DNA from: Escherichia coli
GTDB taxonomy: Bacteria; Pseudomonadota; Gammaproteobacteria; Enterobacterales; Enterobacteriaceae
Direction: 5' to 3' (one strand)
Length of the DNA: 64,000 bases
NCBI RefSeq assembly: GCF_003334765.1
Contig: NZ_QOWT01000001.1
Under the pieces are notes generated by a model. The model worked only from the letters and a program-made list of their open reading frames with translations. It was not told the origin of the DNA and ran no database searches. Position numbers and translations under genes: made by a program. Positions 6,850 through 9,072 of the stretch are shown piece by piece; positions within the stretch are counted from its first letter, which is position 1; each line of letters begins with the position of its first letter.

Positions 6850-9072
6850 TTAGTCCTCGTTTACAACCTTCTGCTGGGCGGCTTTTTTGGCCTGAGCGCG
6901 GGCAATAGCCGCGGCAACTGCCGCTTTGCGCGGATCAACCTGTTCTTCTGGTACCGCATTAGCCTGTTGCTGTTCCAGCTTGCGTGCTTTGGCGCGTGCA
7001 ATAGCCGCTTCGACGGCAGCTTTGCGCGGATCAACCTGTTCTTCTGGCTCCGCATTAGCCGGTTGCTGTTCCCGTTTGCGCGCTTTGGCTCGGGCAATAG
7101 CGGCTTCGACGGCGGCTTTGCGCGGATCGACCTGTTGTTCTGGCTCGGCATTAGCCTGTTGCTGTTCCAGCTTGCGTGCTTTGGCACGGGCAATAGCGGC
7201 TTCGACGGCGGCTTTGCGCGGATCGACCTGTTCTTCTGGTTCCGCATTAGCCTGTTGCTGTTCCAGCTTGCGCGCTTTGGCACGGGCAATAGCGGCTTCG
7301 ACGGCGGCTTTGCGCGGATCGACCTGTTGTTCTGGTTCCGCATTAGCCTGTTGCTGTTCCAGCTTGCGCGCTTTGGCGCGGGCGATAGCTGCTTCAACGG
7401 CAGTTTTACGTGGATCAGCAACGGTTGCTGCGTCGTTAGTTTGCTGCAGTTCTGCCTGTTTCGCTCTGGCTTGCGCTTTACGGGCTTCCCGTGCTGCAAT
7501 AATTGCACTGTTATCCGGGCGTTCGCCCGCTTTAATCACAATAGGCTGTGTAGCCTGGGCCTGTTTCTCTTTCACCCGCGCCAGAGCGGCAGCAATCGCA
7601 TCTTTATCTTTGGCTGCAGGTTGAACGGCTGCGCTCTTATGTCGTTCAAGGCGAGCCGCTTTTTCGCGCTCCAGACGAGCCTGGCGCGCTTCGAAACGCG
7701 CTTTGGCTTCTGCGGCGCGCTTTTCTTCCTGACGAATAGCCGCAATTTCAGCTTTTTCCTGACGGAAATATTGCACCAGGGGAATATTGCTCGGGCAAAC
7801 CCACGCGCAAGCCCCACATTCAATGCAATCAGCAATGTTATGCGTGGTAGCTTTATCGTGTTGCTGACCTTTGCTGAACCAGTACAACTGTTGCGGCAAA
7901 AGATCCGCAGGGCAGGCGTCAGCACAGGCGCTACACCGGATGCAGCTTTGTTCTTCCTGTGGTTCGCCAAGTTCATTGGCAGAGGGAGCCAACAGACAGT
8001 TGGTAATCTTTACGACCGGGACATCCAGCCATGGCAAGGTAAAGCCCATTAGCGGGCCACCCATAATCACCATTTGATCGGCAGAGGGGCAGAATCCGGC
8101 ATCATTCAATAAATGACGCACTGGCGTCCCCAGCCGTGCCCAGACGTTGCCCGGGCGAGCGATTGCTTCGCCAGTCAGGGTTACAACACGCTCGGTAATC
8201 GGCTCGCCATCAATAACGGCACGTTTCACTGCATAAGCAGTGCCGACGTTTTGCATTAATACGCCGATATCGGATGAACGCCCGCCATGTGGAACCTGCT
8301 TCCCGGTCAGAATGTAGGTTAATTGTTTAGCACCGCCAGAAGGATATTTGGTTGGAATCACCCGCAGAGAAATATCGTTAGAGTCCGCCAGCACCGCGCG
8401 CAGCATGGAAATCGCCTGCGGTTTGTTATCTTCAATGCCGATAAGAATTTCGCGTGGCTGCAGAATATGCGCAAGAATGCGAATACCCTCTACGACCTGA
8501 GCCGCGCAATCCTGCATCAAACGGTCATCGGCGGTAATGTACGGCTCGCACTCAGCCGCGTTGATAATCAACGTTTCAATCTTATCTCCGCCACCCTGCA
8601 ATTTAACGCCTGTCGGGAATCCTGCACCGCCCAGCCCGGCAACACCAAACTGATGTATGCGCTCGATTAACTCTTCGCGACTGCGAGTGCGATAATCGGC
8701 CCAGCCGTCGCGCGGGATCCAGCAGTCTTCACCATCGGCATCAATAATCACGCTTAATTCAGCTAAAGCTGAAGGATGAGCCGTAGAGTGGGGCGCAATA
8801 GCCGTAACGGTACCCGAGGTGGGCGCGTGAACAGGCAGCATTTTGCCGCGACCACGGGTAAGCGGCTGGCCGCGCAATACTTTATCGCCGACGCTAACGC
8901 ACAACTCACCTTCAGCGCCAATATGCTGTTTCAGTGGAATAACAAAACGCTGCGCCAGGGGTACCTGGCGCAGGGGTGTACCGTTGGACTGGGTTTTCAT
9001 CTCCGGTGGATGGATGCCGCCGTTGAAATCCCAGATTTTATTTTTTCTGAATGCAGAGAATAACTTAAGCAT
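6850..9072 (-). CDS. rsxC: Rsx/Rnf electron transport complex subunit C, with repetitive C-terminal domain
   Basis: 740-aa ORF; N-terminal RnfC/NqrA-like and Fe-S Cys motifs; C-terminal 32-aa tandem repeats. Confidence 0.9.
6896..7420. repeat. about 5.5 in-frame tandem copies of a 96-bp unit inside rsxC
   Basis: near-identical 96-bp units (e.g. ...gcaatagccgc..gacggc.gctttgcgcggatc.acctgtt.ttctgg...) encoding [31 protein letters not shown]. Confidence 0.85.

Follow-up and report, generated by a model that had tools for sequence, protein, structure and literature searches.

The rsxC gene of Escherichia coli raises the question of whether a repeated protein tail, differing in length between strains, is only a filler or a working part of its enzyme. 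We analysed a stretch of 64,000 nucleotides of contig NZ_QOWT01000001.1 (assembly GCF_003334765.1), called the window below, in which rsxC (rnfC/ydgN) occupies 6850-9072 on the minus strand as an intact coding sequence (CDS) of 740 amino acids plus stop. RsxC is the cytoplasmic NADH/flavin mononucleotide (FMN)/2x[4Fe-4S] subunit of the Rsx (Rnf-type) complex. The 3' part of the gene contains a 96-bp tandem array, and a sequence-only reading of the window had labelled the encoded tail a linker. We found that each repeat unit is bipartite, and that one part, a basic helix, is under tighter constraint than the catalytic core of RsxC. The ratio of non-synonymous to synonymous differences per site (pN/pS) is about 0.02-0.05 in the repeat helix and 0.09 in the core.

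The two parts of the repeat unit

Tandem Repeats Finder detected one array on the minus strand at 6896-7417, with a period of 96, 5.4 copies, 91% matches, 0% indels and a score of 813, in good agreement with the earlier description of an in-frame 96-bp repeat of about 5.5 copies at 6896-7420. The repeat remains in frame because 96 is 32 x 3; the array contains no frameshift and the 740-residue open reading frame (ORF) is intact. In the protein register there are five full 32-residue units with DPRK starts at residues 553, 585, 617, 649 and 681 (window 7416 down to 6937). The 32-residue peptide given by the sequence-only reading is the same unit, rotated in register relative to the DPRK start. 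Pairwise identity among the units is 82-92 of 96 nucleotides, and each full unit consists of an 18-residue helix segment followed by a 14-residue spacer.

Conservation was analysed in rsxC loci from 80 GTDB species, which belong to Enterobacteriaceae genera except for one record under the name Chryseobacterium, and which provided 73 complete ORFs. That record (Chryseobacterium sp. 18061, CACSKA010000003.1) has an rsxC 82% identical to that of E. coli with five DPRK units, and mislabelling or contamination of the assembly is the probable cause. The array was present in each of the 73 complete ORFs, starting at residue 548-562. When units were located by motif positions 1-7, and not by 8-18, positions 8-18 were identical in 98-100% of the 252 internal units of the 73 species. 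Positions from 19 onward were variable, with an entropy of 0.8-2.9 bits, and unit lengths were mostly 30-48 residues. A terminal unit with its own consensus, ending in [DE], was present in 73 of the 73 ORFs. Between 2 and 6 different codons are used at each codon position of the helix. The proportion of synonymous differences (pS) in the helix was 0.63 between species and 0.34 between copies within the same array, with non-synonymous proportions (pN) of 0.011 and 0.006, respectively. This combination of several codons per position and high pS indicated that the invariance of the helix is due to selection and not to recent ancestry.

The rsxC ORF of the window is 100% identical over 2223 nt to that of E. 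coli K-12 MG1655, and K-12 was compared with the 73 species segment by segment. The pN/pS ratio was 0.092 in the catalytic core (residues 1-440), 0.138 in the first helix of the tail (441-480), 0.298 in residues 481-552, 0.047 in the first repeat helix (553-570), 0.588 in the first spacer (571-584) and 0.129 in the terminal unit. Among the five units of the window, the helix part showed 51 synonymous and 4 non-synonymous differences (pS 0.354, pN 0.010), and the spacer part 16 synonymous and 18 non-synonymous differences (pS 0.186, pN 0.054). The idea that the units are young copies was therefore not borne out: with a pS of 0.35 between helix parts within the K-12 array, the units are not young, and every copy is individually maintained. 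The label of linker holds for the 14-residue spacer, which behaves in a linker-like manner, but not for the 18-residue helix, where constraint exceeds that on the catalytic core.

The repeat helix has a net charge of +4, with six Arg/Lys and one Glu, and its only hydrophobic residues larger than Ala are Val7 and Ile11. All of the spacers (244/244) are net acidic, from -1 to -6 with a mean of -2.9, and Lys and Arg together make up 0.7% of their residues; A accounts for 26%, Q and E for 17% each, P for 11% and V for 10%.

Full-length RsxC was modelled with AlphaFold2 (AF2) on a 74-sequence Enterobacteriaceae alignment, which is shallow, and the model was used for secondary structure only. It showed one helix of 19-23 residues per unit, with segments of a predicted local distance difference test score (pLDDT) below 50 in between. 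Unit 1 (residues 553-584) lies at 7321-7416 on the minus strand, with the helix motif at 7363-7416, the spacer at 7321-7362 and the predicted helix at residues 554-575. It is followed on the same strand by unit 2 (585-616; 7225-7320; predicted helix 586-607), unit 3 (617-648; 7129-7224; 618-638), unit 4 (649-680; 7033-7128; 650-668) and unit 5 (681-712; 6937-7032; 682-703). The protein invariably ends with the terminal unit, which is divergent and 28 residues long (713-740; 6853-6936, minus strand; predicted helix 714-736). The Asp-Pro at the beginning of the motif is a typical helix N-cap. Every E. coli allele that was examined had Thr at position 5 as the mark of its first unit. Replacement of the Asp at position 1 was rare, and was observed as GPRK in Escherichia whittamii (residue 617) and as EPRK in E. 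coli 14EC033 (residue 681).

The AF2 helices were separate, with low-confidence coil between them, and no confident solenoid or toroid packing was seen in this poor model (mean pLDDT 55, predicted template modelling score 0.40). Two known kinds of helix were rejected. A membrane-targeting amphipathic helix did not fit the hydrophobic moment of 0.15-0.22 and the mean hydrophobicity of -0.38 obtained in a crude calculation on the Eisenberg scale. An ER/K single alpha-helix domain did not fit the single Glu per helix and the splitting of the units by Pro-containing spacers predicted to be non-helical. A phmmer search of two units against all PDB sequences (E<=10) returned one match at chance level (E 1.4) and no structural analogue.

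Copy number and distribution of the array

The array itself is already known, as the marker ms11 in E. coli and as an RsxC repeat in Erwinia. According to PMC8215070, ms11 belongs to the E. coli/Shigella panel for multiple-locus analysis of variable-number tandem repeats (VNTRs) of Gorge et al. 2008 (J Clin Microbiol 46:1026). The same paper tabulates the ms11 primers and a tandem-repeat size of 96 bp, and scores alleles of 0, 4.5, 5, 5.5, 6 and 7 repeats, with several size alleles on PCR gels. The forward primer GAAACAGGCCCAGGCTACAC has an exact single match at 7548-7567 on the minus strand, and the reverse primer CTGGCGCTGGTTATGGGTAT an exact single match at 6802-6821 on the plus strand, inside rsxD. 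The expected number of chance matches of these primers in the window is 0, and for this strain the pair predicts an amplicon of 766 bp (6802-7567). Because the primer pair matches exactly and flanks the array, and the unit is 96 bp in both cases, we concluded that the array is ms11. The two agree in locus, primers, unit and size polymorphism between strains. In PMC8215070, however, ms11 is an anonymous length marker, and rsxC, the reading frame and the encoded peptide are unmentioned there.

A megablast search with rsxC detected the gene in 5,425 of 5,426 complete E. coli genomes, and copy number was counted in an evenly spaced sample of 60 records. When an alignment ended short of the rsxC 3' end, copy number was taken from the annotated CDS length; BLAST spans alone undercount units when the alignment ends at query 2174/2177, as in O157:H7 Wll001, whose CDS has 6. 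Five internal units (740-742 residues) were the state of 35 genomes and four (708-709 residues) of 12; six units (772 residues) were found in 6 genomes, all sampled O157:H7, and seven (806 residues) in 5. One genome had two internal units (644 residues), and one, the lowest-ranked record, had none (580 residues). Copy number thus varies among E. coli genomes, as had been supposed from the differences between the units, with 0, 2, 4, 5, 6 or 7 internal units, all in frame.

All E. coli rsxC length alleles are in frame, and they differ by whole units, by in-register fusions or by single codons. The array of strain ETEC1749 is the K-12 array less one unit, and the allele of strain 1105 joins unit 1, in register, straight to the terminal unit. 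Units of 33 residues, with an extra Gln codon that turns QQQ into QQQQ, were observed in E. coli OV24, Nissle, S3 and 8178. These Gln codons form another, smaller slippage site inside the 96-bp unit, and the extra codon in some units explains the RsxC lengths of 709, 742 and 806 residues.

The shortest of these alleles is misannotated. In strain 1105 (NZ_CP023388.1, 1501-3243), the Prokaryotic Genome Annotation Pipeline calls rsxC an incomplete pseudogene "missing C-terminus" with a CDS at 1501-3225. The ORF is actually intact, running for 580 residues to the rsxD start, and represents the minimal allele with zero internal units. In ETEC1749 (NZ_CP122712.1, 2428 onward) it is rsxD that is annotated as frameshifted, and rsxC is intact with 708 residues.

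Rearrangements at the array were also observed. An 88-residue E. coli protein (P0016) joins the RsxC repeat directly to the C-terminal part of the IS1 transposase, which places an IS1 insertion within the array in one or more E. coli genomes. Two further proteins, P0022 (97 residues) and P0027 (93 residues), have a Salmonella-type RsxC tail with the spacers QEQQTGSEPAEPV fused to a DmsC/YnfH-like N-terminus MGSGWHEWPLMIFTVFGQCV (PF04976). Both derive from complete genomes of about 4.78 Mb, and these fusions look like a large deletion with one end within the repeat array. A laboratory-evolved, olaquindox-resistant derivative of E. coli ATCC 25922 was reported with one non-frameshift deletion in rsxC (PMC7696260), which could be a loss of repeat units arisen in the laboratory or a short-read artefact at the locus.

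Beyond E. coli, 1.84 billion representative proteins were searched exhaustively with the tail by phmmer, and 130 matches only were obtained. The long motif-bearing matches that were checked all had the RnfC core too, and five of five representatives scanned against NCBIfam passed the RsxC model. The element (K)AAV[AE]AAIARAKA[KR]K was present in 2-11 copies with periods of 27-64 residues, and the spacers were acidic and lineage-specific. Carriers included Vibrio vulnificus, Shewanella, Pseudoalteromonas, Aeromonas caviae, Ferrimonas, Paraferrimonas, Aliagarivorans, Alginatibacterium, Motilimonas, Celerinatantimonas, Rheinheimera, Thorsellia and Erwinia. Length variants occurred within single 90% clusters (773/782/825/1013, 673/725 and 820/840/874/890 residues), indicating that these lineages are polymorphic in copy number as well.

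Apparent carriers outside RnfC did not hold up on inspection: P0181 (an autotransporter adhesin), P0182 and P0223 were unrelated repeat proteins, and P0156 was a frameshifted RsxC tail. A word-indexed protein search for the motif outside RnfC returned almost solely RsxC fragments. Judged from these protein searches, the helix array is restricted to RnfC/RsxC, as a clade-wide architecture.

The remainder of RsxC and its relatives

The identity of the gene was clear from its family matches: the protein scored 868.2 bits against the RsxC equivalog model NF003454 (cut-off 345) and 596.8 bits against TIGR01945 (cut-off 245.95), the latter spanning residues 13-445. The Pfam domains follow in the order PF13375 (RnfC_N, residues 14-115), PF01512 (Complex1_51K, 139-283), PF10531 (SLBB, 296-344) and PF12838 (Fer4, 376-430), which is the architecture expected of RnfC: an RnfC_N barrel-sandwich, a Nuo51-type FMN domain, SLBB and a 2x[4Fe-4S] ferredoxin. 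Contiguous ORFs on the same strand downstream of rsxC (5791-6849, 5167-5787 and 4468-5163) fit the rsxA-B-C-D-G-E operon, and RefSeq annotates rsxA, rsxB, rsxC, rsxD and rsxG at identical or related loci. The allele of the window is also carried, at 100% over 2223 nt, by further complete genomes of the K-12 lineage and others (H1-H7).

The catalytic core (residues 1-445; 7738-9072, minus strand) is the sole part with solved homologues, the RnfC chains 8ahx_C, 7zc6_C and 9eri_C, whose alignments cover residues 15-448/498. The Pfam scan found no domain in RsxC beyond residue 445 (446-740). The tail begins with a long AF2 helix at residues 431-481 (7630-7782, minus strand), which aligns to the tail of 8ahx_C and has a pN/pS of 0.138; the further AF2 helices upstream of the array are 487-506 and 522-545. 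The first of these corresponds to M1 (487-506; 7555-7614, minus strand), a single-copy degenerate relative of the repeat helix in which D489, A492, A495, A496, R499 and K503 are invariant in 74 sequences. The second lies in M2 (519-545; 7438-7518, minus strand), a conserved basic helix with the PDNS motif, with P519, D520, N521, R528, E529, R531, K532, A533 and R536 invariant in the same sequences. Together, M1 and M2 (487-545; window 7438-7614) resemble ancient degenerate copies of the repeat helix. An element of M1 was also found in proteins of Vibrio, Shewanella and Pseudoalteromonas, and the PDNS of M2 likewise in distant RnfC tails. Since M1 and M2 are kept as far as these genera, the tail of RsxC is a fixed architecture and more than a repeat.

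Two published tails are close enough for comparison. The RsxC of Erwinia amylovora has a 40-residue C-terminal repeat from residue 553 in 0-5 copies, which was proposed as a typing marker (PMC10587187, 2023). It is like the E. coli repeat in belonging to the same protein, in starting at residue 553 and in its 18-mer, which is the same except for R/K at position 17, but its spacer is 22 residues long and Ala/Pro-rich instead of 14 residues and Gln/Glu-rich. That study guessed a solenoid or toroid fold, and the invariance of the helix across genera and the contrast in selection are not in it.

The second is RnfC of Azotobacter vinelandii, whose C-terminal helix, over 50 residues in length, contacts RnfB and RnfH according to a 2025 review (PMC12174285), which summarises the structure of Zhang and Einsle 2024 (PDB 8AHX) and describes the function of this helix as "not yet understood". 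The statement of the sequence-only reading that the tail is functionally poorly defined agrees with this wording and with the Pfam result. The A. vinelandii helix resembles that of E. coli as an Ala/Lys/Glu-rich helical extension after the ferredoxin domain, and it aligns to residues 441-498 of E. coli RsxC. The A. vinelandii protein, however, ends there at 496 residues, without the DPRK...ARAKARK motif, a tandem array or acidic spacers, and the E. coli array is situated some 70 residues farther downstream.

In our literature search, no paper joined rsxC with a 96-bp unit or ydgN with a VNTR, and none dealt with the RnfC C-terminal extension; the sole paper printing the motif was the Erwinia amylovora study. 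As far as the searchable literature shows, neither a helix more conserved than the catalytic core nor an RnfC-specific, clade-wide array has been described.

The array also disturbs assemblies, as the sequence-only reading had anticipated. The contig ends inside the array in 6 of the 80 species-representative assemblies (L011, L030, L061, L077, L080 and L084), and one more (L017) stops at a probable scaffold gap. A protein search with two units and the terminal unit yielded chiefly RsxC/RnfC fragments of 55-160 residues labelled "partial", some of which represent hundreds of identical member sequences.

Possible roles of the array

We read the locus in two layers: an in-frame minisatellite, ms11, that varies by whole units, and bipartite protein modules that together form a putative multivalent docking array. 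We give this reading a probability of roughly 0.6. Misalignment between units would add or remove 96-bp units, resulting in RsxC with 0 to 7 internal units and a fixed terminal unit. The tail would then be a series of identical basic helices on flexible acidic tethers, hung from the NADH-binding subunit of Rsx/Rnf. Each helix would be one copy of a specific docking element, and the array a multivalent binding site. The invariance of all helix faces, the maintenance of each copy, the exclusivity to RnfC/RsxC and the retention across orders despite spacer turnover suggest such a specific, multi-copy element. Copy number would set valency and reach, and would be loosely constrained above one copy.

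The partner would probably come from the Rsx/Rnf system or its clients, and candidates are RsxB, RseC, an RnfH homologue, SoxR, and an acidic ferredoxin or flavodoxin. Lee et al. are reported to have found a two-hybrid interaction between RsxC and SoxR in 2022.

Tandem arrays of short linear motifs on disordered tails are known, as are disordered regions built of charge blocks, for example the C-terminal domain of RNase E. The tail of RsxC is like them in its short conserved elements, fast-evolving disordered spacers, variable copies and alternating blocks of opposite charge. It differs in that its element is a predicted pre-formed, Ala-rich helix instead of an extended motif.

Several observations weigh against a multivalent docking array. 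Alleles with 1 to 8 motifs exist without obvious cost, including the E. coli allele with the terminal unit only, which indicates that high valency is not essential. Array length and copy number are loosely held (coefficient of variation 0.28 each), and no trade-off between copies and period was found (Spearman rho -0.07, p 0.57). The conserved residues cover all faces of the helix and include only two larger hydrophobics, which is unusual for a classic docking peptide. The invariance of motif positions 1-7 is partly circular, those positions having served to find the units. The AF2 model is poor overall, with the repeat helices at pLDDT 60-77 and part of the core (294-437) below 50, and it showed the repeat helices docked on nothing. 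As for the DNA, the structure of the alleles suggests gain and loss of whole units by misalignment between them, through replication slippage or unequal recombination. In E. coli, slippage at tandem repeats some 100 bp long is efficient without RecA, as Bzymek and Lovett reportedly found in 2001.

A serious rival is a charge-block polyampholyte that works without a specific partner, by self-association or clustering of Rsx, by adsorption to the anionic inner membrane or by non-specific capture of acidic redox carriers. It accords with the strict alternation of +4 helices with spacers that are net negative without exception and nearly devoid of Lys and Arg, and with the conservation of this arrangement and not of the spacer sequences. 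RsxC has no transmembrane helix and, in Rnf structures, is located at the cytoplasmic membrane face. Electrostatics alone would, however, tolerate Lys/Arg swaps, Ala substitutions and shuffling, and A6, A9, A10, A12, A14, A16, V7 and I11 show the same invariance as the charges do. The hydrophobic moment and mean hydrophobicity given above are also unlike those of membrane-targeting amphipathic helices, although this is a crude test. We consider this explanation unlikely, but still a serious one.

A passive linker or entropic spacer, in the sense of the linker named by the sequence-only reading, would be low-complexity filler whose sequence is irrelevant and whose copy number drifts neutrally; this view appeared quite improbable. 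The lack of any Pfam domain in residues 446-740, the presence of anywhere from 0 to 7 internal units in E. coli genomes that look healthy, the loose conservation of array length and copy number, and the fast evolution of the spacer half (pN/pS 0.59) are all as it would have them. Filler would hardly explain, on the other hand, why the helix half is the most constrained segment (0.02-0.05 against 0.09 in the core) at a near-saturated pS of 0.63, or why the constraint is seen copy by copy inside single arrays. Moreover, while spacers were replaced, the helix has been kept all the way from Vibrionales and Alteromonadales to Enterobacterales, and the terminal unit was lost in no sampled species.

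The conserved entity could in principle be a nucleic-acid element or an overlapping gene in another strand or frame instead of the RsxC peptide. Long ORFs do exist there: one of 435 residues at 6745-8052 and a Cys/Ser/Ala-rich one of 232 residues at 6926-7624, both on the plus strand, and one of 215 residues at 6861-7508 in a second minus-strand frame. Over the helix segment, pN/pS was 0.02 in the rsxC frame, 0.08 in the wobble-matched antisense frame, which is that of the 232-residue ORF, and 12-30 in the four others, with about 12 in the in-phase antisense frame of the 435-residue ORF. The lowish value of 0.08 is passively inherited, because this frame shares its third positions with rsxC. 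Purifying selection thus acts only in the rsxC frame, and the long antisense and alternative-frame ORFs are spurious by-products, the 232-residue one arising from the composition of the repeat, much as the sequence-only reading had proposed for antisense ORFs. There is no conservation at the nucleotide level: synonymous sites approach saturation between species, they differ at 0.34 within arrays, and no helix codon position is limited to a single codon. A scan of the array against Rfam found no family, the best match reaching 13.9 bits against a gathering score of 100. An element of this kind is accordingly very improbable.

Assembly error, finally, has next to no chance of explaining the copy number in the window or its differences between genomes. 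Short-read assemblies do break at the locus and one database entry (P0156) is a frameshift-riddled version, but many independent complete genomes share the window allele unchanged, the alleles differ by exact multiples of units that are distinct in sequence, and PCR-based ms11 typing sees several size alleles on gels (PMC8215070).

As a DNA feature the array is ordinary, a known typing minisatellite in a reference E. coli genome. Its practical effects are broken short-read assemblies, "partial" RsxC fragments in databases and an intact short allele annotated as a pseudogene. In RsxC itself, it is the repeated helix of the tail, and not the cofactor-binding core, that is most strongly conserved; no solved Rnf structure contains the array tail, which appears limited to a single large clade of gammaproteobacteria.

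Within the reading as a multivalent docking array, a narrower proposal is put forward tentatively: that the 18-residue helix, conserved in Enterobacterales, Vibrionales, Aeromonadales and Alteromonadales, may be a dedicated recognition element of RnfC/RsxC only, recruiting a specific partner to the NADH side, with SoxR, ferredoxin or flavodoxin as candidate clients to be reduced and RsxB, RseC or RnfH as candidate assembly or regulatory subunits. The natural alleles of 0 to 7 units, together with an 18-residue bait peptide, offer a cheap experimental handle on the interactions of Rsx/Rnf with its surroundings. If the proposal is true, the minisatellite would be a natural valency dial for the partner interaction, a first function would be given to a tail of about 300 residues that no Rnf structure resolves, and the finding might bear on how Rsx finds its substrate.

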